From Pyrodictium abyssi (GTDB taxonomy: Archaea; Thermoproteota; Thermoprotei_A; Sulfolobales; Pyrodictiaceae), in the NCBI RefSeq assembly GCF_036323395.1, contig NZ_AP028907.1, positions 180,001 to 212,000 on the forward strand: a DNA stretch of 32,000 nucleotides. The letters run 5' to 3'. Position 1 is the stretch's first letter. The number at the start of each line of letters is the position of its first letter. The position numbers and the translations under genes were made by a program. Shown in pieces: positions 8,934 to 23,300 of this stretch. Under the pieces are notes generated by a model. It saw nothing but the letters and a program-made list of their open reading frames with translations, ran no database searches and had not been told where the DNA came from.

Positions 8934-8992
8934 CCCATACCCCACACCCGCATCCCCTAATCCATATACCGTGTCACGGAGGCTTACTCTCT

Positions 8993-9313
8993 ATGGGGGT
9001 TCAAGTGCCGCCGCTTCTGACGTCGGTGAAAGTAGAGGCGAAGATAACGTACCAAGTCAAGAAGGGCAGATACCGTTATGCCTATTTGCACATTCCCGCG
9101 AGCATTAAAGCGCTAGTTGAGGGGCGTTACTTCAAGGTTGAAAAGAAGGGCAATGTGGTCATCTATAGAATTAGCGAGCCAGGACCCAATACCTATAAGC
9201 CCGTTAGATATGGTAAGAAGTCTATCTATATCAGGCTTCCTCTAGAAAATGTTATGGCAAAGAAGGCGATAATTGAGCTGCTTCCGGACGGCTTTGCTGT
9301 TCACCTTGTTTAA
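8993..9313 (+). CDS. Hypothetical protein (possibly AbrB-like beta-rich DNA binder)
   Basis: The track ORF 8876-9313 begins inside the tRNA, so the internal ATG at 8993 (MGVQVPP...) is preferred, giving 106 aa. Two segments (YLHIPASIKALVEGRYFKVEKKGNVVIY and IYIRLPLENVMAKKAIIELLPDGFAVHL) loosely resemble SpoVT/AbrB strands; this is a weak call. Confidence 0.5.
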   Translation: MGVQVPPLLTSVKVEAKITYQVKKGRYRYAYLHIPASIKALVEGRYFKVEKKGNVVIYRISEPGPNTYKPVRYGKKSIYIRLPLENVMAKKAIIELLPDGFAVHLV

Positions 9314-9324
9314 CTTACTCTAAG

Positions 9325-9345
9325 TGTCAGAGCCCTAGTCTGACA
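9325..9345. repeat. Palindrome P1: TGTCAGA-N7-TCTGACA
   Basis: TGTCAGAgccctagTCTGACA with perfect 7-bp arms, between convergent genes. Confidence 0.85.
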
Positions 9346-9346
9346 A

Positions 9347-9426
9347 TATTCGCTACAACCCTGTAGGGGAAACCAGGAGTGCCCTCGTGTCCTAGGGGGT
9401 TTCTCCCTTCTCGAGGAGAGGGAAAC
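9347..9426 (+). repeat. Hairpin elements H0 (degenerate, 9347-9373) and H1 (9399-9426)
   Basis: H0 is tattcgctacaaccctgtaggggaaac. H1 is GTTTCtcccttctcgaggagaggGAAAC (28 nt, near-perfect dyad centred on CTCGAG). Confidence 0.85.
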
Positions 9427-10167
9427 CTACTTCTTGCTCCATTGCACCTTGAGCACTGCTGACAGCTTGCCATAGTTCTTTGCCCGCTCGAGGACCTCAT
9501 TGTAGAACTCTGCATAGGATCGCCTTATCTTGGCGTACCTCTCATAGATTTGGTCGCCTTCACGGAAGAGCCAGAACTGTATTTTCTTTACTTCGCTGCT
9601 ATCCCAGTAGAACTTGCCGTCCTCCCGCTGCTTTCTCATGTAGACTTTTGCCTCACTCATCCACCCTCTTCTCTCATCATAGTGGACTTTCCAGACTCTG
9701 GCCTTGTAGCGGTAGACGTAGCCATTTTGTATTATGCCACGCGGCAAGTGCTTCTCGCTCGTCATAGTCATTATCATAAATCCTGTCCAGGTTCTCATAG
9801 TCTCGATATGTCCCATGATTGCAACGGAGAATGGATCGTAGGGATAGCGCTTGACTATCTCCATCCAGGGACCGGCATCATCCCATACAATTAGCGGATA
9901 TCGTATTCCTTCTTTTAGTGCTTGATCTACCTTTTCTTGAAGCTCCATTGGCGTAAATATCAGTAGTTCAAACACCTTATCCCAGTCTTGTAGAAGCTCA
10001 TGGGCTATCTTCAGAGCTAGCGTGGACTTACCGCTCCCCAGCGGCCCCTCTATTACCAGGAGGAACGCGTTTTGTTTCACTATTCCCTCAATGCAGAACT
10101 GACGTGCAAGCTTTCGCCTAACGTTTTGGCAGATGTGCTTAATCTCCCACATATAGGGGTCCCCCAT
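9427..10167 (-). CDS. P-loop NTPase (AAA-like; similar in size and layout to the DnaA-like ATPases of small crenarchaeal viruses)
   Basis: Walker A EGPLGSGKSTLAL and Walker B PLIVWDDAG; 246 aa. The family assignment beyond P-loop NTPase is from memory and not verified. Confidence 0.85.
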   Translation of the reverse strand: MGDPYMWEIKHICQNVRRKLARQFCIEGIVKQNAFLLVIEGPLGSGKSTLALKIAHELLQDWDKVFELLIFTPMELQEKVDQALKEGIRYPLIVWDDAGPWMEIVKRYPYDPFSVAIMGHIETMRTWTGFMIMTMTSEKHLPRGIIQNGYVYRYKARVWKVHYDERRGWMSEAKVYMRKQREDGKFYWDSSEVKKIQFWLFREGDQIYERYAKIRRSYAEFYNEVLERAKNYGKLSAVLKVQWSKK

Positions 10168-10178
10168 TATAAAGAGCC

Positions 10179-10577
10179 TTACCAGTTCTCTTCCTCTACC
10201 TTCTTCACTCTGGATAGCTGTACATTCTGTAGTATTCTCCAGGCTTTGCCAGCAACGATGGAGAGAATCTCCTTGACGCCGCTACGTTTCTTGGCCCTCT
10301 TGAGTATCAGGTAGTTGTAGATGAATCTCTTTAGCGTAGGATCCGGGATTGTGTCTGCTATAGTCTTCAGCATGGCTAAAGTGCGGATTTCTTTATCCGA
10401 AAGCTCGGATAATGTTATTACTGCCTTGCCTTTGGGCATCGCTAGCATCTTGACGGCTATCCTCTGTGCACCAAAGAGGTCCTTATCCTCTTCGAAGTCG
10501 AAGTCTTCATCGATTTCTATATCGAAGTCGAGGGGGTCCTCTTCCTCTGCTCTTTCTCTCCTCTTACGGGCCGGCAT
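10179..10577 (-). CDS. Hypothetical protein with a highly acidic N-terminus
   Basis: 132 aa (EEEDPLDFDIEIDEDFDFEEDKD...). Tightly packed between the membrane protein and the ATPase genes, with 4-nt and 11-nt gaps. Confidence 0.6.
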   Translation of the reverse strand: MPARKRRERAEEEDPLDFDIEIDEDFDFEEDKDLFGAQRIAVKMLAMPKGKAVITLSELSDKEIRTLAMLKTIADTIPDPTLKRFIYNYLILKRAKKRSGVKEILSIVAGKAWRILQNVQLSRVKKVEEENW

Positions 10578-10581
10578 AGTA

Positions 10582-11208
10582 TCACCTTGCAGGCGCTATG
10601 GATACGTGATAGCCTAGCATGGGTAGGATAAAGAACTCCATGATGAACGCGAGAGTCATTCCGACAAGTAGCATCACGATCTGCTCTCCCTTCGTGGGCT
10701 GTATCTTGCCGACAAGCTTCTCTATTGTTCTGCTCGCAAAGTAGTTCTTGAGCACTATCGGGTGTATCATTGACGGTCCTATCTTCGCTTTACGAAGCTC
10801 TTGCTGTATCTCTTCGTCGTCGGGATCTTCGAATTCATAGACTATGTTTCTGTCCGCATCAACTATGATTACCGGCTCTGCTCTCCTACAATTGCTGTCT
10901 TTGCAGAATATGTAAGGCTCCATAGGCGGTAGCTTGTAGAGTCTTGTAGGAGTTATCAGTTCTCCGCTAGCTGTTAGCTTGCCTATGGTTTTCATGAGGA
11001 TCTTGCCGTTTCTTAGGAGAACAGTTACTCTATCCCCCCGTGTCCGCTGGAACGTCTTTACCCTGTTCAGAGCTGCGTATGCTAGCCGCATGGTTTGGTC
11101 TATTCTGGCAGTAGTTGCTATGAAGAGAACGAGTGCGAAGAATGCTATAGTTATGAGCACGTAGAGGATGCTAAGCAAAGCATCTTGTGGCAGACTCACC
11201 GGGCTCAT
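10582..11208 (-). CDS. Hypothetical membrane protein (N- and C-terminal TM helices)
   Basis: 208 aa. TM segments LSILYVLITIAFFALVLFIATTA and IVMLLVGMTLAFIMEFFILPMLG. First gene of the minus-strand operon. Confidence 0.6.
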   Translation of the reverse strand: MSPVSLPQDALLSILYVLITIAFFALVLFIATTARIDQTMRLAYAALNRVKTFQRTRGDRVTVLLRNGKILMKTIGKLTASGELITPTRLYKLPPMEPYIFCKDSNCRRAEPVIIVDADRNIVYEFEDPDDEEIQQELRKAKIGPSMIHPIVLKNYFASRTIEKLVGKIQPTKGEQIVMLLVGMTLAFIMEFFILPMLGYHVSIAPAR

Positions 11209-11305
11209 TATAGCTCCCGTAGCTCTATTGATCGTCCCTTACCTTTTCTTCGCCCTTTCCAGCTTTCATAAGCTGATGCTAGCTCACAGTTGCTAAGTCG
11301 AGAAT

Positions 11306-11330
11306 GTTTCCCTAAAGATCTAGGGGAGAA
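11306..11330 (+). repeat. Degenerate hairpin element H2 abutting a start codon
   Basis: GTTTCcctaaagatctaggggaGAAt, with inner CCCTA/TAGGG arms as in H16. Its 3' end overlaps the first base of the ATG at 11330. Confidence 0.5.
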
Positions 11331-12079
11331 TGCGAGCAATAGCACCCATTGTTGCTGCTGCAATACTAGCACTCATAGCTGGTGCTGGCATTACTGCCTA
11401 TGTGCTTTCTCGGCCCGCAGCTGAGGCTCCTCTCGCAGCTATAGGTACTGCGAACATTATCGCAAGCGTGGAGACCAGGTATATTGTTGAATACATGGTG
11501 TTTGCGAGCGATAAGATAGATCTTAAGGTGTACTTGAACGGAACAGATGTTGCAGACATATTCATCCTGGTACCTACCTCGAGTTCAGAGTACATGGTTG
11601 TCTATAACAAGTACGACTATCAAAGCGGTACTCTACTTGAGTTGAACTATATGAAGGAGTTCATAGTTCTAGCCTGGAGAGATGGCTATGTAGATGCGAT
11701 AATCGTGGACATGGAGAACCCGGCACCCGGAGAGGTACGCCTTCACACGACACATCATCCCGATCCTATGAGCTTGACGCAATATGTGAAGGTTACAAAG
11801 CGCTGGTGGGACATTCTCTGGGAGGGTTTTGCGGTACTATTTGAAATGATGACTGCCATGAAGTTTGTAATAGATATTGTCGTGGCTATGCTGCCCTATG
11901 CCGGAGCTATGTGGTCTGTCTGGCTTGTCTCCGCCATTTCGAAAGCGCTTAGAGACATGAGCATTGAACCTCTGATAGACTTCTTCTATAAGAACTACCA
12001 AATAGTGAGAGGGATAGTATCGGCAGTTACGCAGATAGTGCTCAAGATAATAGACTTGATAACCGGGCCGGCAACATAA
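11330..12079 (+). CDS. Hypothetical membrane protein
   Basis: 249 aa. N-terminal TM (AIAPIVAAAILALIAGAGITAYVL), a central soluble domain and C-terminal hydrophobic helices. Confidence 0.65.
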   Translation: MRAIAPIVAAAILALIAGAGITAYVLSRPAAEAPLAAIGTANIIASVETRYIVEYMVFASDKIDLKVYLNGTDVADIFILVPTSSSEYMVVYNKYDYQSGTLLELNYMKEFIVLAWRDGYVDAIIVDMENPAPGEVRLHTTHHPDPMSLTQYVKVTKRWWDILWEGFAVLFEMMTAMKFVIDIVVAMLPYAGAMWSVWLVSAISKALRDMSIEPLIDFFYKNYQIVRGIVSAVTQIVLKIIDLITGPAT

Positions 12080-12083
12080 CGTT

Positions 12084-12175
12084 ATTTCGCCTACAGGATC
12101 TCTGATGAAATCTTGCTTTCTACATGATTTCGCTATCCTCGAGAAGGAGAAACATGTCAGACTGATACTCTGACA
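12084..12175 (+). repeat. Hairpin elements H3 (12084-12111) and H4 (12127-12153), plus palindrome P2 (12155-12175)
   Basis: H3 is ATTTCgcctacaggatctctgatGAAAT. H4 is ATTTCgctatcctcgagaaggaGAAAC. P2 is TGTCAGActgatacTCTGACA (perfect). They lie between convergent genes. Confidence 0.85.
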
Positions 12176-12195
12176 GTCTCTACGAAAAGAGGATA

Positions 12196-12300
12196 TCATG
12201 TAAGGATGTCTGCCACGAGCTTTGCAAGCCTGTAGCCCAAGTAGCCGGCAAATCCGGCAGCAAATGCGTAGATAACAACTTCAAAGGGCTCTAAGCTCAA
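12196..12300 (-). CDS. Possible 34-aa hydrophobic peptide
   Basis: Hand-found. A TTG at 12300 overlaps the end of the upstream ORF (12281-12589). Translation is (M)SLEPFEVVIYAFAAGFAGYLGYRLAKLVADILT plus a stop. The only support is TM-like composition and start/stop overlap. Confidence 0.2.
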   Translation of the reverse strand: MSLEPFEVVIYAFAAGFAGYLGYRLAKLVADILT

Positions 12301-12589
12301 CCTCCCGCACCTCCTCGAGCATTTGATTCCCTACTGCGATTCCCTTCTGCCTTAGTAATTCCATTAGTTTCCTTGCTCGAGGATCGTCCTCGGGCTCAAC
12401 CCATACTACTAGCCTGTATTCCTCTGGTGGATGTTCATCTTTTTCCACAAAGAGCCAGGCTGATAGCTTTATCATAAGCTGTGGCACGTTTCTACCTCTG
12501 AAAGTTCTCTGGGCAGCTATCGTTGAGCGTCTACGGTGTATTAAGGCAGCTCTTACGGTTATAGGAGGTGTGCGTGGCGGTCCTCCCAT
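12281..12589 (-). CDS. Hypothetical protein
   Basis: 102-aa ORF with a basic N-terminus and an acidic C-terminal half. No recognisable family. Confidence 0.5.
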   Translation of the reverse strand: MGGPPRTPPITVRAALIHRRRSTIAAQRTFRGRNVPQLMIKLSAWLFVEKDEHPPEEYRLVVWVEPEDDPRARKLMELLRQKGIAVGNQMLEEVREVELRAL

Positions 12590-12683
12590 TAATGTGTCCC
12601 TTTACTCCTGTTTAGAGCCCGGTAAGCCGTGTTAAGCTTGTCGAGCTAATGTAAGCTGGTTCTAGTTCGCGGCTCAAGTATAG

Positions 12684-12995
12684 TTGTTGTTGGAGTTAGA
12701 ACGCATGGAGATGGGTATGTCTTTTATGAAACGGGTGAAGGAGAAGCTAGCTAAAGTAGGTCAAGAGTTCAAGGCACGGGCTAAAGCGATAGCAGTAGCG
12801 ACCCTAGGCATAGGGACAACTTTGCTAACTAAGGTGGCGCACGCTCAGACAACCATAGATACCAGTAGCATGACGGAGATGATATCAGCATTCCTACCGA
12901 TAATAATGAGCTTATTCGCTATAATGATTCCGCTAATGTTCTTTGGTAAGATAATGGAGTTCTTTGAGAGGCTACTACGCAGCTTTGGCGGCTAA
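12684..12995 (+). CDS. Small two-TM membrane protein (candidate virion/envelope protein)
   Basis: The likely start is one of the ATGs at 12705-12726. It has a signal-like TM (AIAVATLGIGTTLLTKVAHA). Its C-terminal anchor MTEMISAFLPIIMSLFAIMIPLMFFGKIME is paralogous to the anchor of the next gene. Confidence 0.65.
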   Translation: MLLELERMEMGMSFMKRVKEKLAKVGQEFKARAKAIAVATLGIGTTLLTKVAHAQTTIDTSSMTEMISAFLPIIMSLFAIMIPLMFFGKIMEFFERLLRSFGG

Positions 12996-13000
12996 TATCG

Positions 13001-13693
13001 GTGATAAGTATGCTAAGGCGGCTACTAGCAGTCTTTTTGGTGGCTCTTATAGCATTCAGCACCGTAGCAGCGGCGCAGACAGAGGTGCTAGTTCCCAGCG
13101 ACGTTAGCGGTCCGATGTGGTGGGACTTCAATGCACAAACGCCTACGGTGATTAAGCTACTGCCGAACCTACCAGGACCAGCGCCTAATGCAAGCGACAA
13201 CCTGCGAATCGGCTTCGTAACACAGACAAAAGAGGCCGGCGGAACATACGAGGTCATAACAATCCGCTTCAAGATAAACGGCATGATGACTGTAGGCAGT
13301 CCTAGGTATGGTGTGCCGGACCAGGAAGTGGCCCAGTGGAGTAACAATGAGACTGTAAAGGTTGTCATATTTGGCAACACTATGGAGGTATATGTAGGCA
13401 GCACTAAGGTATGGAGCTATGAGGCGAGCGAAGAGATCCCGGACATAAACTACGTGTATGCGGATAGCGCTACATTCGGAGTGCCGGCATTCGAAGGCGG
13501 CGGATACATAAAGATATACGTGGATGAGGAGGAGCTAAACTCCATCCTAATAAACTATCAAATGCGGGAAAGCATGAACGCGACAATGGAGCTCTTCACA
13601 GCGTTTATGCCGCTGTTGATGGTATTCGCAATATTCGGAATGTTTATGAAGTTCATGGGCAAGATAATGAATACGTTGGGGAGAGCATTTTGA
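13001..13693 (+). CDS. Secreted protein with a C-terminal membrane anchor
   Basis: Signal peptide LLAVFLVALIAFSTVAAAQ, a beta-rich ectodomain of about 170 aa, and the anchor TMELFTAFMPLLMVFAIFGMFMKFMGKIMN. Confidence 0.7.
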   Translation: MISMLRRLLAVFLVALIAFSTVAAAQTEVLVPSDVSGPMWWDFNAQTPTVIKLLPNLPGPAPNASDNLRIGFVTQTKEAGGTYEVITIRFKINGMMTVGSPRYGVPDQEVAQWSNNETVKVVIFGNTMEVYVGSTKVWSYEASEEIPDINYVYADSATFGVPAFEGGGYIKIYVDEEELNSILINYQMRESMNATMELFTAFMPLLMVFAIFGMFMKFMGKIMNTLGRAF

Positions 13694-14742
13694 AACCCAT
13701 AGCTCTTTTTATAGCGGTTCTTCTCCCCCTAGGCCTAATCGTTACTGCGCATGCTGAGCAGAATCCTATAGTAGCTGTCTACTTCTACGCATGGTATGGT
13801 GAGGGATTAGGAGGGAGACATTGGAACGACTCAGCTTATACGCCCATCGTGGATGAGCCGCTGATAGGCTACTATAGCAGCCTAGACCCGGACACGATCG
13901 AGTGGCAGCTAAGGCTACTCAAGCAAGCAGGCATAGACGTACTCTTCATAAGCTGGTGGGGCCCCAATAGCTACGAAGATAGAGCAGCTAGACTGGTCTT
14001 CGAGAACCTGAAGCGCTTCGACCTGAAGGCCGCTATACTGGTCGAGCCCTATCTGGGAGGAGATCCTAGCCTCTACGACTACGAGTGGTGGCTTCAAGTA
14101 CTAGATTACATAAAGAAGAACTACATAGATAAGTATCCGAGCGTCTACTTCCGCTGGGAGGGCAAGCCGCTAGTACTAGCGTACAACCCCATAGGGATGA
14201 AGTGCCGACCAAACACAGACGAGTTCACGGTGAGGATAGTCGGCAACGACATAGACAATGCTGGCTACCAGGACTGGGACCTATGGCCAGACTACCTAGC
14301 CCCATGGACCACAGACAAGCCCATAGAGCTCAGAGTACGACAGGACGGCTACGTGGCCATAGCACCACGCTTCGACGACAGGGTATTCTGCGAGCTAGGC
14401 GTAAGGACTGGCTGTGATCAAAGGCTCTTGGATCCAAATTACACGCTTCAAGCCTACGTGAAACAATGGGAGTGGATACTTCAGCATAAGGATCAAGTAA
14501 GGCTCATAGCGATTTATAGTTGGAACGAATATCACGAGCGCAGCCAGATAGAGCCTCATTACGACGCAACAAAGCCGGAGCCGCTGGTTTACGATCCCTA
14601 TGCATTAACAAGAGCATACACCGAGAAACTGCGCGGTATCGAGTATAGTAAAGAGTACAAAGCTTTAGCCCAGGGTCTAGGACAGATAATGGGTGTTGCC
14701 TTCCTTGCAGGTGCGGCTGCGCAGTTTATCCGGCGGGCTTAG
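13690..14742 (+). CDS. GH99-like glycoside hydrolase (endo-alpha-mannosidase family), secreted and C-terminally anchored
   Basis: Signal peptide, then VYFYAWYG...HWN, IGYYSSLDPDTIEWQLRLLKQAGIDVLFISWWGP, LKAAILVEPY and IAIYSWNEYHERSQIE. From memory these parallel the human MANEA motifs FYYSWYG...HWN, LGSYSSRDPSVIETHMRQMRSASIGVLALSWYPP, HIEPY and ITSFNEWHEGTQIE. The TTG start overlaps the previous stop (TTGA). Confidence 0.8.
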   Translation: MKPIALFIAVLLPLGLIVTAHAEQNPIVAVYFYAWYGEGLGGRHWNDSAYTPIVDEPLIGYYSSLDPDTIEWQLRLLKQAGIDVLFISWWGPNSYEDRAARLVFENLKRFDLKAAILVEPYLGGDPSLYDYEWWLQVLDYIKKNYIDKYPSVYFRWEGKPLVLAYNPIGMKCRPNTDEFTVRIVGNDIDNAGYQDWDLWPDYLAPWTTDKPIELRVRQDGYVAIAPRFDDRVFCELGVRTGCDQRLLDPNYTLQAYVKQWEWILQHKDQVRLIAIYSWNEYHERSQIEPHYDATKPEPLVYDPYALTRAYTEKLRGIEYSKEYKALAQGLGQIMGVAFLAGAAAQFIRRA

Positions 14743-14768
14743 TTTCTCTCCTCGATCCCTGGCGAAAC
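14742..14768 (+). repeat. Hairpin element H5
   Basis: GTTTCtctcctcgatccctggcGAAAC (27 nt). It starts at the last base of the GH99-like stop codon. Confidence 0.8.
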
Positions 14769-14803
14769 ACCTTGCAGTCTCAGCTCTGATTCTCCATGCT
14801 GCC

Positions 14804-15028
14804 ATGGGGCTCTATCTGGCTTGTTTAGCAGCCATTTACGATTCTACTAATATGGGATTTGTTCTTCTCATAGCATACCCGGTGCTTACCGTTAGTCTCT
14901 GGATAACTAAGCCACATGCAATGTTAGCCTTCATGGTTCTAATTGCAGCTTCCCTAAGCTTTCTTAAGCTGTTATGGACTCGAAGGTATCATTTCAAGTT
15001 ATTTGTAAGGCGTATTCTAGGGGGCTAA
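14804..15028 (+). CDS. Small hydrophobic membrane protein
   Basis: The track ORF 14693-15028 overlaps the GH99 gene and H5. The internal ATG at 14804 gives a 74-aa protein with 2-3 TM segments (MGLYLACLAAIYDS...). Confidence 0.45.
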   Translation: MGLYLACLAAIYDSTNMGFVLLIAYPVLTVSLWITKPHAMLAFMVLIAASLSFLKLLWTRRYHFKLFVRRILGG

Positions 15029-15895
15029 TTGGGCAAGAAGAAGAAAAAGGTCTACTTTGGCGATGATAGTATCTTCAAGGCGGTCAAGGACATAGGTAGA
15101 AAGGGGTTAAACACACGAGAGGAATTCATTGAATTAGTTGCTGCGCAAGTTCTCGACCTAGCAGATCTTAGGACTAGGAGAAATACTGGCCGGCCCGCTA
15201 AATGGACACTACAGCTCTGGAACCAACGCTGTTTTGTACTGAGAGAGTTGAATAAGAGGAAACGGTTTGGTCTGGCAGCTTTCGTAAGGAAAGCTTGCAG
15301 TCTTGGCAGGCGCATTCTGAGGTCTAAGGATAAGCTGCCTTACTACAAGCGTCTCAAGATACTTGCGAAATTCGGTATGTGGGTCTCCGAGAAGTATGGT
15401 GTCTCTCCTAGGACGCTTGCTCACATAATAAGGCGCGTGAATGAGAACGAGCGGCTTGTCCGTAAGCTTACGGAGTTCTTCTATCGGGAGCTTGGCAGGG
15501 AATTCAAGAGGCGTGGCATTTCTCCCCGTGTTGCTACTAGGCGTCTGAAGAAGCATATACGGCGTATAAGGAGCCTCTTCAACGATGAGGATAAACGTAT
15601 TGCTGCCTATCTCTGGGATATGATTCCAAAAAAGTATAGAAGCGGAGCCCGGAGGCTCTGGACTTATCTTCTAGTTCTTCACCTAGCAAGATGGATTCGC
15701 AAAAAGGCTAAGGAGTCTGGTGTTGATTGGCGCGATATTGACTGGGCAGCTGAGATCGACTGGAGACAGGGCTATTACTATGCTAAGAGCCGTGTCTTCG
15801 AGCTGTTAGGAATGCTAGGGAGTAAATACGAGGGTCTAACTGAGGAGGAGATTGAACAGATGATGGAGTACTGGGCTCAGAATGAGCGTATATGA
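15029..15895 (+). CDS. Highly basic protein with a helix-turn-helix-like segment
   Basis: 288 aa, with a TTG start immediately after the previous stop. Lys/Arg-rich; YGVSPRTLAHIIRRVN resembles an HTH. No family recognised. Confidence 0.7.
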   Translation: MGKKKKKVYFGDDSIFKAVKDIGRKGLNTREEFIELVAAQVLDLADLRTRRNTGRPAKWTLQLWNQRCFVLRELNKRKRFGLAAFVRKACSLGRRILRSKDKLPYYKRLKILAKFGMWVSEKYGVSPRTLAHIIRRVNENERLVRKLTEFFYRELGREFKRRGISPRVATRRLKKHIRRIRSLFNDEDKRIAAYLWDMIPKKYRSGARRLWTYLLVLHLARWIRKKAKESGVDWRDIDWAAEIDWRQGYYYAKSRVFELLGMLGSKYEGLTEEEIEQMMEYWAQNERI

Positions 15896-15988
15896 GCTAT
15901 CGTGAGCTTTCTTCAGCTTCACTAAGCTCTCGGAGAATCTGGCTGTGGATAGCGTATTCCGCTACCTTTTCTCCACCCGCTGAGAGCC

Positions 15989-18040: not shown

Positions 18041-18058
18041 GCCCCTAGCTCTTTTTTC

Positions 18059-18107
18059 CTTTCCTCTTCTGCCTGTATGTGAAACTTGTCAGACTCTAGT
18101 TCTGACG
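18059..18107 (+). repeat. Degenerate hairpin H6 (18059-18085) plus palindrome P3 (18087-18107)
   Basis: H6 is cTTTCctcttctgcctgtatgtGAAAC. P3 is TGTCAGActctagtTCTGACg. Confidence 0.75.
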
Positions 18108-18191
18108 CTAGTTCTAAATCGGAATAAGAAGCAGAGGAGAAGCGGGCTCAGCGATTATCTCATCATTACCCGCTTTGCCCGGTGGCCCGCT

Positions 18192-19166
18192 ATGCCCCAG
18201 AGTAACACGTCTCGAAGAGATAGTAGAGAACCTAGCCCTGGTACTGCACAAGGACACTACCGGCCTAGCGAGCTCATTCTACGCTATATAGTTGAAGAGA
18301 AGGTCTCCTTCTTCCGGCTCGAGGAGATACGCTACTGGGCAAAGAAGCGCTACGGAGTAGACATAGACAGGAGGAGGCTCCATGATGCGGCAAAGAGGCT
18401 TACTGCTCGGGGCGTCTTCGAGAAGCCTTCGAGAGGCCTATATCATGTAAAAGACTGGGCAGCTGTCCACATGCTAGTTTCACTCTCCTCGAGAAAGAGA
18501 AACAATGAAGCCCTTGAGGGCCAAGAAGGGATTCACCTACAGGCTAGAGGTGAAAACGTCCTTGAGCCGCGTCAGAACATGAGTCGGACGGACGCGGGCG
18601 CGGCGGGGCGGGCTGGGCGGCGGGTGTCTGAGCGGTGTTCTGACAGGTTGCGGCGGTTTGTGCCTGTTCTCGCTACGGAGGAGGGGTGTTGGACGGTTCT
18701 TCGCTGGCATCTTAATGCGCGTCGGGAGAGGGTTTGGGACTGGCTGTGGGATCTCTTCGAGAGGGCGGTTGCTTTTCGGGAGCTATTCTCTTGGATTGTT
18801 AGATGGCTTAGGGAGGAGCTGCACCGTATGGGGGCGTCTAAGTACGAGATCCGGAGGCGGGTTAGGCGGGTTCTGCAGCGTGTTAGGAGGCTGCTTTCGA
18901 GGGTTAGGCCCGTGATTGGTGCTCATTATAGGAAGAGGTTCTGGCCCCTGGGGGATCTTCTCCGCTTGTTTGGTGCTGAGGAGAGGCTGCCCAGGATGGA
19001 GTTCGGGGTAGAGCTTTGGGCTTGCGGTGAGGGGGCGGTGGAGGCTGCGCGGGAGGGCTACGAGGTCTTTGGGAGCCAGGACGTGTATACTCCGAACGCA
19101 TACAAGCATAATACTCCGGAGCATGCTCAGTATAGGCTGCGGCTGCGTTATCATCCTAGGCACTAG
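18192..19166 (+). CDS. Hypothetical protein: N-terminal winged-helix-like domain plus an Arg/Trp-rich C-terminal half
   Basis: 324 aa. LILRYIVEEKVSFFRLEEIRYWAKKRYGVDIDRRRLHDAAKRLTARGVFEKPSRGLYHV looks like a wHTH. Composition changes sharply after about 18590. Contains hairpin H7 in frame. Confidence 0.65.
   Translation: MPQSNTSRRDSREPSPGTAQGHYRPSELILRYIVEEKVSFFRLEEIRYWAKKRYGVDIDRRRLHDAAKRLTARGVFEKPSRGLYHVKDWAAVHMLVSLSSRKRNNEALEGQEGIHLQARGENVLEPRQNMSRTDAGAAGRAGRRVSERCSDRLRRFVPVLATEEGCWTVLRWHLNARRERVWDWLWDLFERAVAFRELFSWIVRWLREELHRMGASKYEIRRRVRRVLQRVRRLLSRVRPVIGAHYRKRFWPLGDLLRLFGAEERLPRMEFGVELWACGEGAVEAAREGYEVFGSQDVYTPNAYKHNTPEHAQYRLRLRYHPRH
18477..18503 (+). repeat. Hairpin element H7 (intragenic)
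   Basis: GTTTCactctcctcgagaaagaGAAAC (27 nt), in frame within 18192-19166, where it encodes VSLSSRKRN. Confidence 0.75.
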
Positions 19167-19167
19167 G

Positions 19168-19260
19168 ATTTCGCTTCTTAGCCTGTATGCGAAACGCTAG
19201 GGGACGCTAGGTTTCTCCTGTCGACAACACTGCGAAATCTGTCAGAGCGGGGCTCTGACA
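19168..19260 (+). repeat. Hairpin elements H8 (19168-19195) and H9 (19211-19238), plus palindrome P4 (19240-19260)
   Basis: H8 is ATTTCgcttcttagcctgtatgcGAAAC. H9 is GTTTCtcctgtcgacaacactgcGAAAT. P4 is TGTCAGAgcggggcTCTGACA (perfect). Confidence 0.85.
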
Positions 19261-19326
19261 AGGTAAGTGGATTAGCTTCGCTTTGCACCGGCTTACGGTT
19301 TAGTAGCTGTTATTCGGTCATCGGGC

Positions 19327-20457
19327 TTGTCAGAGTTGGGCTCTGACGCTGGTTTTGTAGCCTTCGAGGGGCAAATAGGAAGGTGGGTGCTCTTTGTGGA
19401 GGGGAGGGTTAAGGTTGCTAGGCTGGTGGAGATAGACGGTAGGCCCTACGTAGTGATAGACGGCGCGTTGATCCCCATTGAGGTTTCGCCCGGGAGCTCG
19501 CAGGCGAAACAGGAGAGGCCGGAGCTTCGCTTTGAGCTGAGTGAAGAGGTCCTCGAGCGCTACCGTAGGTGGCTTCCCAGCGAGCAACGAAGTTACCGAG
19601 CCAGGGACCCGGAAACCATAGAGAAGTATATCAGCTATTTAAAGAAGTTCTATGAGTGCAGTAATGGGGTTATATCGCCTGAGACGATTATGAAGTGTGT
19701 TACGAATAAGCACTATGTGAGGGCGTTAAGAGCGTTCGTGGAGATGTTGAGGTACTATGGAGAGGTGTCGCGGCACCTGGCTCTTGAGATCCTTGAGAGG
19801 CTTAGGTGGAGCCGGAATGATAGGATTGGCGAGGATATTGTTCCGGTTTCCCGGGTGCTCGAGAGCATAGCATTCGTCGAGGAGGAAGGGCTTCCGCTGT
19901 ACCAGCTGCTCTATAGGGCTATGCTCTATAGTGGCGGTATCCGGCTGGAGCAGTTCTTCGAGCTAGTGCCCTACGAGGATCATTACTGGCTGTGGAGGGG
20001 AGCGGAGCCCCGGCCCTTTGGCAGGTATAACGCTGTTAAGGCTCTCGAGGACCGTGGGGTAGCCTCGAAGCCTGTGGACCATATATGGCTGCCTGAGGAG
20101 GTTTACCGGGGGCTTAGGGGGCTTGATCCTGATTTCCTTCCGAAGCCGGGAGCGGCTAGGAAGTTCTATAGCCGGCATAAGCTGGTAGGCCCGACATTGA
20201 TTCGTAGCTTCTGCTGGCAAGTTGCGAAGTTTCTCCTGCCCGACAAGAATCTTGCTAGGATGCTGCAGGGGAGGCTTGGAGAGCTTAAGCGCGAGGTATC
20301 CGCGGGGAGCTATGACGCGCTCCGTTATCAGCTCGATCAGCTATACCCGCTTTGGATGCGCTTCGTGGACAGGCTCTACGAGGCGGCCAGGCGTGGTAAG
20401 CCTCTCGAGGAGGCGCGGAGGATAGTCGCTGAGTACCGCTTGCCCCTCCCACCTTAG
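19327..20457 (+). CDS. int: Tyrosine recombinase (integrase), intact
   Basis: 376 aa. Core-binding-like helices (IEKYISYLKKFYE..., ALRAFVEMLRYYG). Candidate catalytic residues are LYSGGIRLEQ (Arg I), TLIRSFCWQ (Arg II), MLQGRLG and SAGSYDAL (Tyr). The exact start is uncertain: TTG 19327 lies inside palindrome P5. Confidence 0.85.
   Translation: MSELGSDAGFVAFEGQIGRWVLFVEGRVKVARLVEIDGRPYVVIDGALIPIEVSPGSSQAKQERPELRFELSEEVLERYRRWLPSEQRSYRARDPETIEKYISYLKKFYECSNGVISPETIMKCVTNKHYVRALRAFVEMLRYYGEVSRHLALEILERLRWSRNDRIGEDIVPVSRVLESIAFVEEEGLPLYQLLYRAMLYSGGIRLEQFFELVPYEDHYWLWRGAEPRPFGRYNAVKALEDRGVASKPVDHIWLPEEVYRGLRGLDPDFLPKPGAARKFYSRHKLVGPTLIRSFCWQVAKFLLPDKNLARMLQGRLGELKREVSAGSYDALRYQLDQLYPLWMRFVDRLYEAARRGKPLEEARRIVAEYRLPLPP
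19328..19348. promoter_or_regulatory. Palindrome P5 overlapping the annotated integrase start
   Basis: TGTCAGAgttgggcTCTGACg. Same family as P1-P4, positioned at the 5' end of int. Confidence 0.6.
19483..19510 (+). repeat. Hairpin element H10 (intragenic, in int)
   Basis: GTTTCGCCcgggagctcgcaGGCGAAAC (28 nt, 8-bp perfect arms, central GAGCTC), in frame, encoding VSPGSSQAKQ. Confidence 0.8.
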
Positions 20458-20459
20458 CG

Positions 20460-20487
20460 GTTTCGCCTAGGAGCTCGTTGGTGAAAC
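20460..20487 (+). repeat. Hairpin element H11
   Basis: GTTTCgcctaggagctcgttggtGAAAC (28 nt). It starts 3 nt after the integrase stop. Confidence 0.85.
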
Positions 20488-20494
20488 TGGGGCT

Positions 20495-20575
20495 GGGCCG
20501 CGGGGATGATGAGTACGGCAGGATCGGATCCGTGAAGAGCGGACTTAACGCTGACCCTCCCGGGACCCGCGGCCC
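20495..20575 (+). ncRNA. Dual-guide C/D box sRNA candidate (core 20506-20554)
   Basis: C box ATGATGA (20506-12), 12-nt guide gtacggcaggat, D' cgga, 3-nt linker, C' gtgaaga (20532-38), 12-nt guide gcggacttaacg, D box CTGA (20551-54). This is the canonical archaeal 7-12-4-3-7-12-4 layout. A perfect 9-bp outer helix (gggccgcgg 20495-503 with ccgcggccc 20567-75) encloses it. Both guides are complementary to conserved 16S rRNA segments (see findings). Confidence 0.6.
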
Positions 20576-20753
20576 TCTGGTTTACCCTACTCTATACTAA
20601 GAGGTATATGGGTTGCGCCCGGCTATACTATAGTGTACTCGAGGGCCCGGCTGCCCCTCTCGACGGGTCGGGGACCCGGGGTGAAGGGATGAGCCGGCCC
20701 GGGAGGCGGGGATTGTCGTGAACCGCCTCCTTCAATGCTCTGACACTCCTAGG

Positions 20754-20876
20754 GTTTCCCCTTCTCGATCCCTGGGGAAACCGGGCCCTGGCGGGGGGTT
20801 TCGCCTTCCTCGAGGAGGGTGAAACCGGCCCTTCCCCTGGAGGGTAGGGTTTCGCTTACAGGCCTGTATGTGAAAT
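20754..20876 (+). repeat. Hairpin elements H12 (20754-20781), H13 (20798-20825) and H14 (20849-20876)
   Basis: H12 is GTTTCcccttctcgatccctgggGAAAC. H13 is GTTTCgccttcctcgaggagggtGAAAC. H14 is GTTTCgcttacaggcctgtatgtGAAAT. A TCTGACA half-site lies at 20739-20745. Confidence 0.85.
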
Positions 20877-20920
20877 AGTGTCGGCTTCCTCTTTCTGTCC
20901 ACCAAAAACAATAAGTAGGT

Positions 20921-20932
20921 GTAACTAGTTAC
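20921..20932. promoter_or_regulatory. Perfect 12-bp palindrome GTAACTAGTTAC upstream of the small-gene operon (candidate operator)
   Basis: It lies between an A-rich TATA-like stretch (aaaaacaataag, about 20904-20915) and the GTG/ATG starts at 20949/20958. Confidence 0.4.
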
Positions 20933-20948
20933 GACTACTTGGCTGCGG

Positions 20949-21269
20949 GTGTGGGGTATGGGGAGTCTACGGGAGGCTCTCATCTTCCTCGCAAATAAGC
21001 CTCAAGCGCTACGTCTTCTCCGCGAGGCTGCGAGGTACAAGGCTTCAAAGGGTAAGCCGCCGTACACTAGAGAGCTTCTCAAGCTGGCAGCCAACGGGGA
21101 CCGCGGCTACAGTATGCGGCTGCTAGAGGAGCTGCAGGCGCTGGGGCTTCTGCGGCGCTACCGGGATTATCTTAGCGATAAGCTGCGCATACCTGTTGTC
21201 CGCAACGATCCCACACCTTTGGCTCACAAGGTTCTAGCACTCTTCGAGGAGGAGGATGAAAATGCCTAG
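20949..21269 (+). CDS. Winged-helix DNA-binding protein
   Basis: 106 aa (GTG 20949 or ATG 20958). TRELLKLAANGDRGYSMRLLEELQALGLLRR looks like an HTH plus wing. Acidic tail. Confidence 0.65.
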   Translation: MWGMGSLREALIFLANKPQALRLLREAARYKASKGKPPYTRELLKLAANGDRGYSMRLLEELQALGLLRRYRDYLSDKLRIPVVRNDPTPLAHKVLALFEEEDENA

Positions 21270-21708
21270 GCCTCCACGGCTTGATAAGGTAATAGCGTTT
21301 GCCCATAAGCTGGCTAGCGATCTTGAGGTAGGGTATCGGGAGCTTGCCGGGATTCGTGGGGAGCTTCTGCGCGTCTCTGAGCTTCTGCGGGATGTCGAGG
21401 TTCTGGAGGCTAGTGTGATCGAGAAGAGTAGGAATGGCTCGGTGTACAGGGTTCTGCAGGTGAAGAGGCCTGGGACGGGCTTTTTCGAGGGAGGCGTGCT
21501 GTCTGTCTATGTTACCCGTAAGCCCGAGCTTGGCGATCTTGTAGTGAGGCTTGTTCATCTCCGTAATGTCTATGCTGAGTGGGTTAAGGCTACTATTAGC
21601 TTGCTTGACGCGTTGGAGAGGACTCCTAGCTTGCTTGAGGAATACAAGCGGCTTGTTTCTCCTACAGGATCTCCGGCGAAACAGGAGGTGAGGGCTCGTG
21701 GATCCTAG
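21256..21708 (+). CDS. Hypothetical protein
   Basis: 150 aa. The start overlaps the previous gene by 14 nt. Contains H15 in frame near its 3' end. Confidence 0.6.
   Translation: MKMPRPPRLDKVIAFAHKLASDLEVGYRELAGIRGELLRVSELLRDVEVLEASVIEKSRNGSVYRVLQVKRPGTGFFEGGVLSVYVTRKPELGDLVVRLVHLRNVYAEWVKATISLLDALERTPSLLEEYKRLVSPTGSPAKQEVRARGS
21655..21682 (+). repeat. Hairpin element H15 (intragenic)
   Basis: GTTTCtcctacaggatctccggcGAAAC (28 nt), in frame, encoding VSPTGSPAKQ, and followed by aggagg. Confidence 0.8.
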
Positions 21709-21847
21709 GGAGCTTGCGGAGATTGAGCAGGAGCTGAGAGAGGCTCGAGAGTTCTTCGCAGAGCGGGGGTACTGGCTCATGGTCTGGTACATAGACGATA
21801 CACTGAGGCTAATAGAGAGGATGAAGGAGGGGAGGAGTAATGGCTCT
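21698..21847 (+). CDS. Possible 49-aa ORF
   Basis: Hand-found. GTG 21698 overlaps the preceding stop region. Translation is VDPRELAEIEQELREAREFFAERGYWLMVWYIDDTLRLIERMKEGRSNGS. Its stop overlaps the RHH gene start (ATG 21840). Support comes only from operon packing. Confidence 0.25.
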
Positions 21848-22049
21848 TAGAACGATCACCGTTAAGCTCGATGACGAGATTGTATCTCTTCTCGACGACA
21901 TCTATAGGAAGCTTGGCTACAATTACCGCAGCGATGTAATAAGAGAAGCACTGGAGGATTGGCTGCGGCGGCATGGATTCAAGGTTAACCTCAGCGTTTC
22001 TCGACCAAGGCATAATGATAGAGGTCTAGTGTTTGAGGTGGAGGTGTAG
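21840..22049 (+). CDS. Ribbon-helix-helix (CopG/Arc/MetJ-type) transcriptional regulator
   Basis: MALRTITVKLDDEIVSLLDDIYRKLGYNYRSDVIREALEDWLRRHG has the classic beta-strand, helix, helix pattern. Confidence 0.8.
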   Translation: MALRTITVKLDDEIVSLLDDIYRKLGYNYRSDVIREALEDWLRRHGFKVNLSVSRPRHNDRGLVFEVEV

Positions 22050-22052
22050 ACC

Positions 22053-22313
22053 ATGACCAGGCTATATCTCTGCGGGTGCTGGCTCGAGGTTAAGGACTGC
22101 AGCTTGCACAAGGCATTGCTGAGGAGTCTTGCCGACATCTACGAGCATGACGTGCTACTCATGGAGGGTGCGCCGGTCTCCATCGACTGTAGGCGGCTGG
22201 CCGCGGACTTCGAAGAGTTCCTGCACGACTATGGTGCCCGGCACTGCCGCGTCGAGCCCGTCGATCCGGCTGAGTGGCGCCGCCCCGAGGAGACGCTACT
22301 TCCGACATTCTAG
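22053..22313 (+). CDS. Hypothetical Cys-containing protein
   Basis: 86 aa. Starts 3 nt after the RHH stop. No family recognised. Confidence 0.55.
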   Translation: MTRLYLCGCWLEVKDCSLHKALLRSLADIYEHDVLLMEGAPVSIDCRRLAADFEEFLHDYGARHCRVEPVDPAEWRRPEETLLPTF

Positions 22314-22326
22314 GGGGTGGGTGGCT

Positions 22327-22755
22327 ATGCCGGTCTTCCTTCTAGCTAATGGCCGCCGGGTTACGCTCTCGAGGGCCCTAGTAGAGCGGGTTGTTACTAC
22401 GAGGCTCTCTAACTGCTTCTCTCCGCAGTGCTACATGTCGAAGGAGGAGTACCTAGCGTGCATAGAGTGGATCACAGGGAGGAGAAGCGAGGCTCCAGGG
22501 CACGCGCGTACATGCATCTACCACATGCTGTTCTACAGCGAGAACCTGGTTCTAACAAACTACATGTTCTTGAGGTCGCTGCGCGACCCAGCGGCGCCAG
22601 AGTACCTAGACTCTATGCTGAGGCTACTCGAGGAGATACGCCGACTAGCAGAGGAGGCCTATCAGCACCTAGCAGCTAGCCGCTATAGCGAGGCTCAGAG
22701 ACTGGCCATCGAGATTCTAGACAAGCTCCTAAGATGGGGAATAGACCCATGGTAG
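22327..22755 (+). CDS. Hypothetical protein
   Basis: The track ORF 22129-22755 overlaps the previous gene out of frame. The internal ATG at 22327 (MPVFLLANGRR...) gives 142 aa with a helical C-terminus. Confidence 0.6.
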   Translation: MPVFLLANGRRVTLSRALVERVVTTRLSNCFSPQCYMSKEEYLACIEWITGRRSEAPGHARTCIYHMLFYSENLVLTNYMFLRSLRDPAAPEYLDSMLRLLEEIRRLAEEAYQHLAASRYSEAQRLAIEILDKLLRWGIDPW

Positions 22756-22758
22756 GGG

Positions 22759-23019
22759 GTGTCTTGCATGTCGGCTGACTGCCGCCGTTGCCGGTTCTTT
22801 ATCCCCCTTGAGAGGATGGATCATGATAGCATAGTGAGGGCTGAGAAGTGGCTTCAATGGATGCAGAAGAACGGGAAGAGGCAGGGTCATAGGATCCTGG
22901 GATGGTGCGGTAGGTATGAGAGGCCGGTAACCTACTATGTTGGCCGCTGCACGGGCTTCTCCCCCTATGCCGATAGACCGGCGGTGAAGAGTATACTCGA
23001 CTATCTTCGGGGCAGCTAG
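22759..23019 (+). CDS. Small Cys-rich (putative zinc-binding) protein
   Basis: 86 aa with CRRC...GWCGRYERPVTYYVGRC. GTG start 3 nt after the previous stop. Confidence 0.55.
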   Translation: MSCMSADCRRCRFFIPLERMDHDSIVRAEKWLQWMQKNGKRQGHRILGWCGRYERPVTYYVGRCTGFSPYADRPAVKSILDYLRGS

Positions 23020-23040
23020 CTCTTTCTTATTAAGAGGAGG

Positions 23041-23127
23041 TGTCAGAGTTCTACTCCGGCATCTTGTTTCTCCCTAGATCCTGTAGGGGAAACTCTCGGG
23101 TTTCTCCCTTCTCGAGGAGGGTGAAAC
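23041..23127 (+). repeat. Degenerate palindrome P6 (23041-23061), plus hairpins H16 (23066-23093) and H17 (23100-23127)
   Basis: P6 is TGTCAGAgttctacTCcGgCA. H16 is GTTTCtccctagatcctgtagggGAAAC. H17 is GTTTCtcccttctcgaggagggtGAAAC. Confidence 0.85.
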
Positions 23128-23132: not shown

Positions 23133-23300
23133 TCAACGTAACTTCCTTAGGCATAGGCGCCCTCTTCCATCTATCTCCCAGATTAGATAGTCGCCTTTGC
23201 TCAGCTTTGTACGTTCCACGAACTCTTTGGGTAGATGTATGAAGAGGACTTCTCCATGTGGGGTCTTCTTTGCCTGAACCCTGACCAGGCGGGGCTGCAT
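23133..23300 (-). CDS. SpoVT/AbrB-family small DNA-binding protein
   Basis: Too short for the ORF track. Hand translation from the ATG at 23300 gives MQPRLVRVQAKKTPHGEVLFIHLPKEFVERTKLSKGDYLIWEIDGRGRLCLRKLR (55 aa). IHLPKEFVE...KGDYLIWEIDGRGRLCL is a typical AbrB swapped-hairpin pattern. Confidence 0.7.
   Translation of the reverse strand: MQPRLVRVQAKKTPHGEVLFIHLPKEFVERTKLSKGDYLIWEIDGRGRLCLRKLR

Follow-up and report, generated by a model that had tools for sequence, protein, structure and literature searches.

The 32,000-nucleotide (nt) stretch of archaeal chromosome analysed here (contig NZ_AP028907.1, positions 180,001 to 212,000; hereafter the window) carries an integrated provirus of 14,513 bp, bounded by perfect 56-bp tRNA-Glu direct repeats, through which a family of palindromes of the form TGTCAGA-N7-TCTGACA is dispersed. 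Judged from sequence and its conservation, these dyads are probably duplex-DNA sites for a provirus-encoded, dimeric, sequence-specific regulator, which would serve as operators at the promoters of the integrase gene (int) and of a gene for a 324-amino-acid (aa) protein, and possibly as roadblocks to transcription at convergent gene junctions. An earlier note on this DNA had proposed a dyad operator for a dimeric regulator encoded by the element, and this is the best-supported reading: the arms are invariant, the positions are kept, and the arm sequence is specific to each lineage of related elements.

In the window, the motif has seven matches at two or fewer mismatches where 0.04 are expected (0 of 100 shuffles), and an eighth copy is found at three mismatches. 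Every copy lies within the provirus; the host flanks, 17.4 kb in all, have none. When repeated dyads were sought without bias, GTCAGA-N7-TCTGAC came out as the top family, with five perfect copies against a maximum of one to two in shuffled sequences (n = 60); the same search found no repeated dyad in the host flanks. Six of the seven copies are intergenic although the provirus is 87% coding and only 13% non-coding (P = 3e-5). The refined consensus is TGTCAGAG-N5-YTCTGACR, a 21-bp site of 8-5-8 geometry. The sites are palindromic and have no orientation, their sole asymmetry being A or G at position 21.

The copies occupy three kinds of position. Three of them are at convergent junctions: a perfect copy at 9325-9345 (TGTCAGAGCCCTAGTCTGACA), with the stop codons of a 107-aa gene and of a DnaA-like gene 12 nt before it and 82 nt away, respectively; a second perfect copy at 12155-12175, preceded by two hairpins, between the genes at 11330-12079 (plus strand) and 12281-12589 (minus strand); and a degenerate copy with two mismatches at 23041-23061, beyond which lie two GTTTC hairpins and the 3' end of a gene for an AbrB-like protein. 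Three more are found upstream of, or between, the genes for the 324-aa protein and the integrase. The copy at 18087-18107 has a TCTGACG right arm and is followed by CTAG and then by TTCTAAAT (18112-18119), upstream of the 324-aa gene; a perfect copy at 19240-19260 abuts a GTTTC-type hairpin 74 nt past the stop of that gene and 88 nt before the next copy; and the int-proximal copy at 19328-19348, again a TCTGACG variant, is the proposed int operator. The last two are within the 324-aa gene, in the portion that encodes a linker predicted to be disordered: TGTCTGAGCGGTGTTCTGACA at 18625-18645, with one mismatch and a TGTCTGA left arm, which encodes VSERCSD, and the degenerate CGTCAGAACATGAGTCGGACG at 18570-18590, with three mismatches. 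The earlier note had listed the six full copies outside this gene, and its coordinates and grading of them (9325, 12155 and 19240 perfect, 18087 and 19328 with one change, 23041 degenerate) are all correct, but the two in-gene copies had escaped it. A half-site at 20739 that it had counted with the family does not stand out, since the window holds three isolated half-sites (1546, 20739 and 24698) where about four are expected for a 7-mer on both strands. Its statement that five of the six copies lie 1-5 nt from a hairpin was too generous: four do, at a distance of 4 nt or less (12155, 18087, 19240 and 23041), while a partial hairpin is 13 nt away from 9325 and no hairpin accompanies 19328. Nor does 19328 overlap the start of int. 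The TTG at 19327 is merely the first in-frame start after a stop codon, and the real start is the GTG at 19396, which is backed by a database protein of 353 aa and by homologue alignments; the copy is thus upstream of the integrase gene.

The two copies with the TCTGACG arm suggest a role in transcription initiation. Relatives of the provirus were taken as contigs, mostly shorter than 10 kb, that encode homologues of the integrase, of a 103-aa winged-helix protein or of the 324-aa protein. In the window and in the related contigs L004, L005 and L173, exactly 68 nt separate the beginning of the int-proximal dyad from the int start downstream of it, and in the more distant L001 a different dyad, GGTTGTACCCGGGGTACAACC, is present at the identical 68-nt distance. 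Four nt past the window dyad is a TATA-like box, TTTTGTAG (19353-19360, plus strand), of the proposed int promoter, which is recognised by sequence and conservation. In an alignment of orthologous int-upstream regions, T19355 and T19356 of this box are invariant; the equivalent boxes are CTTTGTAA in L004 and L005, CTTTGAAT in L173 and TTAAGTAG in L001 and L003, and the gap between dyad and box is 4-5 nt in the relatives. An invariant TGGGTG (19384-19389, plus strand), 23 nt past the box and 6 nt before the GTG, marks a proposed transcription start or Shine-Dalgarno-like region and is also kept in L001 and L003. In the same alignment the dyad arms are invariant and the spacer and flanks average about 50% identity. 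In the window, L005, L008, L179 and L001, the int-proximal copy is preceded by a second dyad at a distance of about 88-104 nt. The arrangement recurs before the 324-aa gene, where a dyad, 4-5 nt and TCTAAA(T/A) follow one another in the window, L004 (3206), L005 (2277) and L179 (9889). The G21 variant accompanies promoter-adjacent copies in 8 of 12 cases, as read by eye from the flanks. Because two copies abut the place where transcription factor B (TFB) and the TATA-binding protein (TBP) would assemble, and because this spacing is held through more than 40% protein divergence, a function on duplex DNA in transcription initiation is the most economical reading of these two sites. A search of related elements for the motif upstream of integrases, which the earlier note had proposed, is thereby positive. 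Its suggestion that the dyad controls int gains from copy 19328, with its fixed 68-nt distance, its TATA-like box 4-5 nt on and another dyad at the same place in distant relatives, but control of int is not the whole function, since three window copies are at convergent junctions, where no promoter is expected.

Comparison of the relatives defines three motif lineages in which the arms have been exchanged and the positions have not. Lineage A comprises the window, L004, L005, L006, L008, L173 and L176, with integrases 71-86% identical and the same dyad; those of its contigs that include the int region (L004, L005, L006 and L008) carry 4-6 copies each, at orthologous places. Lineage B (L171/L172 and L179-L181) has a left gene module 72-83% identical to that of the window, and a regulator module 32-52% identical, and its integrase belongs to another family (in L171, 34% identity over 89 aa). 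Its half-sites are TGTCWGA in all combinations, and pair 5/17 among nine sites is T-A in five, T.T in three and A.A in one, the mixture expected if half-sites vary independently and sequence is read rather than pairing preserved. In lineage C (L001/L002 and L003; integrases 55-57% identical) the TGTCAGA motif is absent. Instead, L001 has eight copies of GGTTGTAC-N5-GTACAACC (4053-11245), also 21 bp and 8-5-8, which occur only in the element part of the locus and replace TGTCAGAG-N5-CTCTGACA; the family is also carried by L002 and by L003 (2052, 3126 and 4315). Arm positions 2, 3 and 7 are shared between lineages C and A, and the other five of the eight differ, symmetrically in both arms. Lineage C dyads are nonetheless found 68 nt before int, in the linker of the 324-aa homologue and by the AbrB 3' end.

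Other copies, too, have orthologous counterparts. A dyad is present beside the AbrB 3' end in the window, L004 (7289), L006 (4429), L176 (2263), L001 (11224) and L003 (4315). Copy 9325 has orthologues in L005 (6422, 12 nt past the stop) and in L171 (4872, same junction), and the in-gene copy 18625 has one in L004 (3747, encoding LSESGSD). At one alignment position, the in-gene dyad encodes RQNMSRT in lineage A, where it is degenerate, CLSSPQT in lineage B (L179) and GCTRGTT in lineage C (L001); an extra in-gene copy of lineage A, 55 nt beyond this shared position, encodes VSERCSD or LSESGSD. Since the peptides differ by lineage and the linker is modelled as disordered (predicted local distance difference test score, pLDDT, below 30), it is the DNA rather than the peptide that appears to be kept. 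In L003 the homologue of the 324-aa gene is split at the linker point. Individual copies are also gained and lost: a stretch of about 100-130 nt around 12155 (12080-12212, with two hairpins and the dyad) lacks an equivalent, by eye, at the orthologous L171 junction, even though the genes on either side share 73-79% identity. The dyads number 5-8 per element. Taken together, arms that are the same within a lineage and different between lineages, free spacers and flanks, and the independent half-sites of lineage B indicate that a trans-acting factor reads the arm sequence, and do not fit a structure for which pairing would suffice.

Two lineage B contigs show further arrangements of dyads. In L171, four dyads spaced 140, 136 and 116 nt apart (1349-1890) lie in a 630-nt non-coding region upstream of the winged-helix operon; each is accompanied by GTTTC-type hairpins and two of them by a further palindrome, CCTTGTGCTTACCTA/TAGGTAAACTCAAGG, and the region resembles an origin or centromere. 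In L179 (GCA_013540595.1, a 1.37-Mb contig), a 1,436-bp piece (9794-11229) that is 100% identical to the metagenomic L180 stands between ordinary host genes and holds a 309-aa gene, four dyads and the first integrase codons. This piece is either a provirus end with a split integrase of the type found in SSV viruses, a relic, or an assembly chimera. Nearby in L179, the 21-mer CTGTTATCCAGCCAATAACAG (7438) is found a second time, in reverse complement, at 9758.

An integrase alignment search of genome contigs gave one distant match only (L009), in which the motif is absent, and the same search of viral contigs gave none. The paired dyad pattern had 0 matches in viral contigs, and the single motif occurred in 44 of them, with one site each, which is read as chance. 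A metagenome scan for paired GTCAGA-N7-TCTGAC yielded 117 loci (L054-L170), none of which encodes a homologue of any provirus protein. These loci belong to unrelated palindrome or tandem-repeat families with dyad pairs 66-96 nt apart, so that the hexamer dyad is not unique to the provirus family. One such family has GGTCAGACCTCCGGTCTGACG and then its near-complement 87 nt on, in contigs of about 60% G+C; another, in contigs of 30-35% G+C, has CGTCAGATC-N3-GATCTGACG pairs separated by about 94 nt, and tandem arrays also occur.

Several observations weigh against the operator. First, dyads are found at three of the three convergent junctions of the window and at none of its three divergent ones, and over all loci, counted by eye from gene tables, at 11 of 15 convergent and 0 of 11 divergent junctions (Fisher P = 2e-4, although the counts are not independent because many of the junctions are orthologous). 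A plain operator does not predict this pattern, whereas roadblocks of the stoperator kind or bidirectional terminator hairpins would. Second, the dyads are near-constantly beside GTTTC/GAAAC hairpins in all three lineages, even in the coding linker, which the operator model does not explain. Third, the 5' untranslated region implied by the proposed 324-aa promoter would be about 50 nt, which is long for a crenarchaeal first gene. Fourth, the co-variation between reader and dyad is based on three motif lineages only. Lastly, one argument against an RNA hairpin is the weakness of its stem, which is about 50% G+C and has a predicted nearest-neighbour free energy of about 0 kcal/mol at at least 85 C for five of the seven copies; this host temperature is drawn from Pyrodictium-annotated homologues, and stabilisation by protein or salt lies outside the model.

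The hairpins themselves form a family that splits into sequence subfamilies, such as one centred on CTCGAG and one containing CCTGTAGGGGAAAC, and the two repeat families travel together. In two lineages (window 18477-18503; L179 10328-10352), the 324-aa coding linker itself contains a GTTTC/GAAAC-type hairpin a short way upstream of its in-gene dyads. A contrast between freely covarying hairpins and constrained dyads was considered and dropped, as the inner nested pairing of the hairpins is 47% Watson-Crick (27% when shuffled) and the subfamilies leave the contrast unclean.

A rival reading is that the dyads act as transcribed RNA hairpins, with a stem of 7-8 bp and a loop of 5-7 nt, that serve together with the GTTTC/GAAAC hairpins as bidirectional terminators, 3'-end stabilisers or sites for a sequence-specific RNA-binding protein; we regard this as unlikely. 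Besides the junction pattern, which fits a palindrome that folds alike in the transcript of either strand, five of the seven copies at two or fewer mismatches are 12-75 nt past a plus-strand stop codon. Hairpins and dyads also interchange, in that the int stop is followed by a GTTTC hairpin in the window and by a dyad in L005, and L006 has a hairpin for the dyad at the 107-aa gene. Moreover, the stem is extended by lineage-specific complementary flanks in L006 (AGG/CCT) and L171 (GATC/GATC). The outermost pair is T.G in 11 cases and C.A in 2, in keeping with the claim in the earlier note that U-G pairing survives only in plus-sense RNA, but that asymmetry is limited to pair 1/21, and pairs 2-7 give 2 against 2. 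The bias is largely explained by shared ancestry at two or three orthologous promoter-adjacent sites and by promoter context, because G21 goes with the promoter-adjacent copies. Pairing within the arms is 92% Watson-Crick, which follows from the invariance of the arm sequence itself, and the symmetric differences between lineages are equally expected for the operator of a dimer. Within a lineage the arms are identical and show no compensatory drift, so that something reads their sequence, and the middle of the stem is disrupted by T.T or A.A in four of the nine sites of lineage B. What had looked like a concerted compensatory change in L171 (A5>T with T17>A) is weakened by the hybrid half-sites of L179 and L180. 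Intrinsic terminators of archaea depend on oligo-T tracts. The dyad stems are followed by no consistent T-run, and upstream of copy 18087 there is already an oligo-T tract, CTCTTTTTTCC. Finally, a fixed distance of 4-5 nt to a TATA-like box in three lineages is unexpected for a 3'-end element.

It is less likely still that the dyads are read on DNA for a purpose other than transcription, as partition or centromere-like sites, replication origins or terminators, packaging or condensation signals, or accessory sites for a recombinase. The presence of a few dispersed copies around a small circular genome recalls, in our comparison, parS-type sites, and the four-copy non-coding region of L171 is origin- or centromere-like. 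The 7-7-7 or 8-5-8 geometry resembles that of tyrosine-recombinase core sites, the gene for the DnaA-like ATPase ends beside copy 9325, and the Bacillus subtilis replication terminator protein (RTP) is among the fold matches of the 324-aa N-terminus, although at E ~1e-2 this is a fold-level likeness between winged helices. Recombination among copies would be blocked by their differing spacers. The att core is a tRNA anticodon-arm region of unrelated sequence, and L171 combines nearly the same dyad with an integrase of another family, which speaks against Int as the reader. Searches of the provirus proteins against protein families found no ParA/ParB-like pair, and the conserved abutment on TATA-like boxes indicates transcription.

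We consider it very unlikely that the composite of hairpin and dyad is a selfish or neutral repeat, comparable to repetitive extragenic palindromes (REPs) or miniature inverted-repeat transposable elements (MITEs), with no dedicated function and only incidental effects. Such repeats could account for the presence or absence of the 12080-12212 stretch relative to L171 and for a cassette in a coding linker (the hairpin at 18477-18503 with dyads 18570 and 18625), and the association of two repeat families recalls, in our own comparison, bacterial interspersed mosaic elements (BIMEs). However, independent spread would not bring repeats to the same places in lineages that differ at five of eight arm positions, nor are the arms expected to be invariant while the flanks decay. 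Copy number is low (5-8 per element), and protein-family searches of the provirus genes detected no transposase or REP-associated tyrosine transposase (RAYT)-like gene.

The operator reading, which we prefer, requires a reader, and the provirus encodes two confidently predicted winged-helix proteins of the dimeric MarR/PadR/F-93 type and a ribbon-helix-helix (RHH) protein. Judging from sequence and structural models in three lineages only, we would give the 324-aa protein a somewhat less than even chance of being the reader, the 103-aa winged-helix protein a smaller one, something else a slightly smaller one again, and the RHH protein a slight one. The winged-helix domain of the 324-aa protein is the most parsimonious candidate. 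Encoded at 18192-19166 (plus strand), this protein consists of an N-terminal winged helix (approximately residues 22-100), a disordered linker and a conserved C-terminal domain. In an AlphaFold2 (AF2) model, pLDDT is 80-92 for residues 21-100, below 30 for the linker and below 50 for the C-terminal domain, whose fold is unknown. Foldseek neighbours of the N-terminus are SarA, STIV F93, SSV1 F-93, RTP and PadR. A homologue in L003 has an AbiEi_4 winged-helix match (8e-06) and the homologue P0026 a weak one, and the window protein is without a winged-helix Pfam match; neither winged-helix candidate has a Pfam match to MarR or PadR. Homologues of the 324-aa protein are encoded in all three motif lineages, and the putative recognition helix reads RRRLHDAAKRL in lineages A and B and RRRIHDAFRKL or RRRIHEALAEL in lineage C. 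Its gene has dyads before, inside and after it. Winged-helix dimers of the MarR/PadR/HxlR type bind inverted repeats of about 16-24 bp, often over their own promoter. Both winged-helix candidates share this fold with those regulators and with viral F-93, and copy 18087 abuts the TATA-like box of the 324-aa gene; unlike them, the 324-aa protein has a large extra C-terminal domain, and sites within a regulator's own coding region are unusual.

The second candidate, a MarR/HxlR-like protein of 103 aa (20958-21269, plus strand; AF2 pLDDT 88), has APE_0880a (2pg4) as its best Foldseek match, followed by MarR-family structures. The start of its recognition helix is RGYSM, invariant, in lineage A and NHAE in lineage B, and no homologue was found in the lineage C contigs examined. 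Upstream of this operon (20907-20940), a conserved CAAAAACAATAAGTA, which resembles a TFB recognition element (BRE) and TATA box, runs into a 28-bp palindrome, AAGTAGGTGTAAC-TA-GTTACGACTACTT (20913-20940). Its outer AAGTA...TACTT is kept in relatives and its inner arms vary (AGTACTCT-N9-AGAGTACT in L006; AAGTAATTCCAGAA/TTCCTGCATTACTT in L171). This palindrome is probably a separate, second operator family through which the operon would regulate itself. The third candidate is the RHH protein (21840-22049, plus strand; PF01402, 7.6e-07; phrog_876). The earlier note had named RHH, winged-helix and AbrB proteins as possible readers; it did not list the 324-aa winged helix, which is confidently predicted and whose gene has sites on both sides and within it, and its AbrB candidate is now unlikely. 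Identity of the AbrB protein (23133-23300, minus strand; PF04014) does not track the dyad, being 82% for the protein of L001, where the dyad is a different one, and 61% for that of L006, where the dyad is shared. The integrase was likewise set aside as reader, given the different integrase family and nearly identical dyad of L171 and an att core, from the anticodon-arm region of tRNA-Glu, that is unrelated in sequence.

A mechanism can be proposed from these elements. Copies 19328 and 18087 stop 4-5 bp short of TATA-like boxes, at the place expected of an archaeal BRE, and a dimer bound there would govern recruitment of TFB and TBP, and hence transcription of int and of the 324-aa gene. Repression in the integrated state seems the likelier sign of this control, and activation the less likely one. 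The reader would most parsimoniously be the 324-aa winged-helix domain, with the 103-aa MarR-like protein or the RHH protein as alternatives. The remaining copies, at three convergent junctions, in the 324-aa linker and about 90-100 bp upstream of the int-proximal dyad, may be auxiliary sites, either roadblocks that obstruct read-through transcription or partner sites in cooperative binding or looping.

A more ambitious version of this scheme, to which we attach a modest probability, is that one winged-helix protein silences and insulates the whole provirus through symmetric, stoperator-like sites that block elongating RNA polymerase. Sites would then lie on the BRE/TATA region of int, on the reader's own promoter, once or twice in its own linker, and at every convergent junction. 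The specificity of protein and site would be exchangeable between lineages (TGTCAGAG, TGTCWGAG and GGTTGTAC) and the positions fixed, which would amount to an archaeal immunity-group system.

The closest functional analogues are the operators and stoperators of Cluster A mycobacteriophages, exemplified by L5 and its regulator gp71 (PMC9283540, PMC6550527). In the L5-type system, one prophage regulator acts on many sites, some in promoters and others in short intergenic spaces, and the site sequence varies by phage lineage (PMC9283540, PMC6550527). Similarly, the provirus sites number 5-8 per element, six of seven are intergenic, two are by TATA-like boxes and three at gene junctions, and the arms are lineage-specific. 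In L5, however, each site is an asymmetric 13-mer that a monomer binds and that is oriented with the direction of transcription (PMC9283540), whereas the provirus dyads are symmetric, 21 bp long and without orientation, and would act on the archaeal machinery of TBP/TFB and TATA/BRE. As they show neither the asymmetry nor the orientation rule, they are not members of the stoperator family. In the temperate crenarchaeal virus SSV1, the small regulator F55 acts at repeated promoter sites over the BRE or the transcription start and keeps early genes off (PMC5569661, PMC9608457). The provirus resembles SSV1 in encoding an RHH protein, and both are members of one broad group of small integrating viruses, but the F55 sites are tandem direct repeats (ATAGATAG) found at promoters only (PMC5569661), whereas those of the provirus are inverted repeats with a 5-nt spacer, half of them away from promoters, and there is no likeness in sequence. 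No repeated dyad family was found in APOV1, the closest isolated virus. The provirus dyads also recall bacterial bidirectional terminators, REPs and BIMEs in being palindromes past stop codons, enriched between convergent genes and composite with a second hairpin family; they differ in having arms that are sequence-constrained and lineage-specific, no consistent T-tracts, stems predicted to be weak at the presumed growth temperature, and two copies fixed to TATA-like boxes. The GlnR/TnrA box, TGTNA-N7-TNACA, spans 17 bp, and the operator that was crystallised reads TGTCAGA-TAA-TCTGACA (PMC9249791). It has the half-site letters of the provirus dyad but separates its 7-mers by 3 nt instead of 7 nt; as the GlnR system is bacterial and of the MerR type, the likeness is coincidental. 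In a paper on Sulfolobus dif/Xer, the heptamers are confined to oligonucleotides used as mutant substrates (dII mutA), and the searchable literature yielded no description of this motif or provirus group.

To our knowledge, almost nothing is known of how lysogeny is maintained or excision controlled in temperate viruses of hyperthermophilic archaea outside the Sulfolobales. If the dyads are ordinary operators, they represent a new regulator-operator pair in an undescribed family of guttavirus-like proviruses. If the junction and in-gene copies are roadblocks, the stoperator strategy of mycobacteriophages would gain its first equivalent in archaea, and the sites would provide a handle on protein-mediated termination and insulation by archaeal RNA polymerase. 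In either case the locus is a compact, testable circuit, with a 21-bp site, two proposed promoters of conserved geometry and three small candidate DNA-binding proteins, and the natural specificity swaps in related elements are usable as controls.

The provirus is guttavirus-like and from a family not yet described. Its left border, attL, is a 56-bp direct repeat (8878-8933, plus strand) that contains the 3' part of a tRNA-Glu(CTC) gene (8850-8927), and the second copy of the repeat, attR (23391-23446, plus strand), forms the right border. The tRNA-Glu fragment in these repeats also matches the attP regions of AGV1 and the SSVs. The flanking host DNA encodes ribosomal protein L1, aIF6, FtsY, Nep1 and RtcA. 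The closest isolated relative is the guttavirus APOV1, which is alike in genome size and whose DnaA-like protein is 31% identical over 96% of its length to the provirus DnaA-like ATPase (9427-10167, minus strand; phrog_5484). The integrase, an archaeal tyrosine recombinase of 353 aa (19396-20457, plus strand; phrog_5127), is intact in the integrated state, and its distant homologues P0011 and P0012 carry PF16795. The remaining genes are mostly ORFans, and homologues of the small proteins are annotated as deriving from metagenome-assembled genomes of Pyrodictium sp., so that the host is probably a hyperthermophile of the Pyrodictiaceae. In the metagenomic contigs L005 (5703-6503) and L006 (4466-5251), the AbrB gene is contiguous with homologues of the window genes at 8990-9313 and 9427-10167; this junction corresponds to an excised, circular (attP) form, so relatives of the provirus exist as free replicons or virions. 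The region of the genes at 13690-14742 and 15029-15895 encodes a GH99/WbsX-like glycosyl hydrolase or transferase (PF16317, 3.8e-15) and a 288-aa protein (phrog_38579) common to APOV1 and AGV1, which is labelled 'glutamyl-tRNA reductase' in the AGV1 annotation.

The provirus also appears, from its sequence features, to carry a C/D box small RNA (sRNA) of archaeal type. The candidate (20502-20557, plus strand) is located between int and the winged-helix operon and consists of ATGATGA (box C), a 12-nt guide, CGGA (D'), TCC, GTGAAGA (C'), a second 12-nt guide and CTGA (D), with inverted GGGCCGCGGGG (20495-20505) and CCCGCGGCCC (20566-20575) on either side. It is kept in L004, L173 and L176, and the first guide differs in L173 and L176. 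Matches to Rfam C/D families are full-length and sub-threshold (snoPyro_CD, 28.9 bits, E = 2e-4 in a 201-nt search). If the assignment is true, a virus-encoded methylation guide would be interesting by itself.

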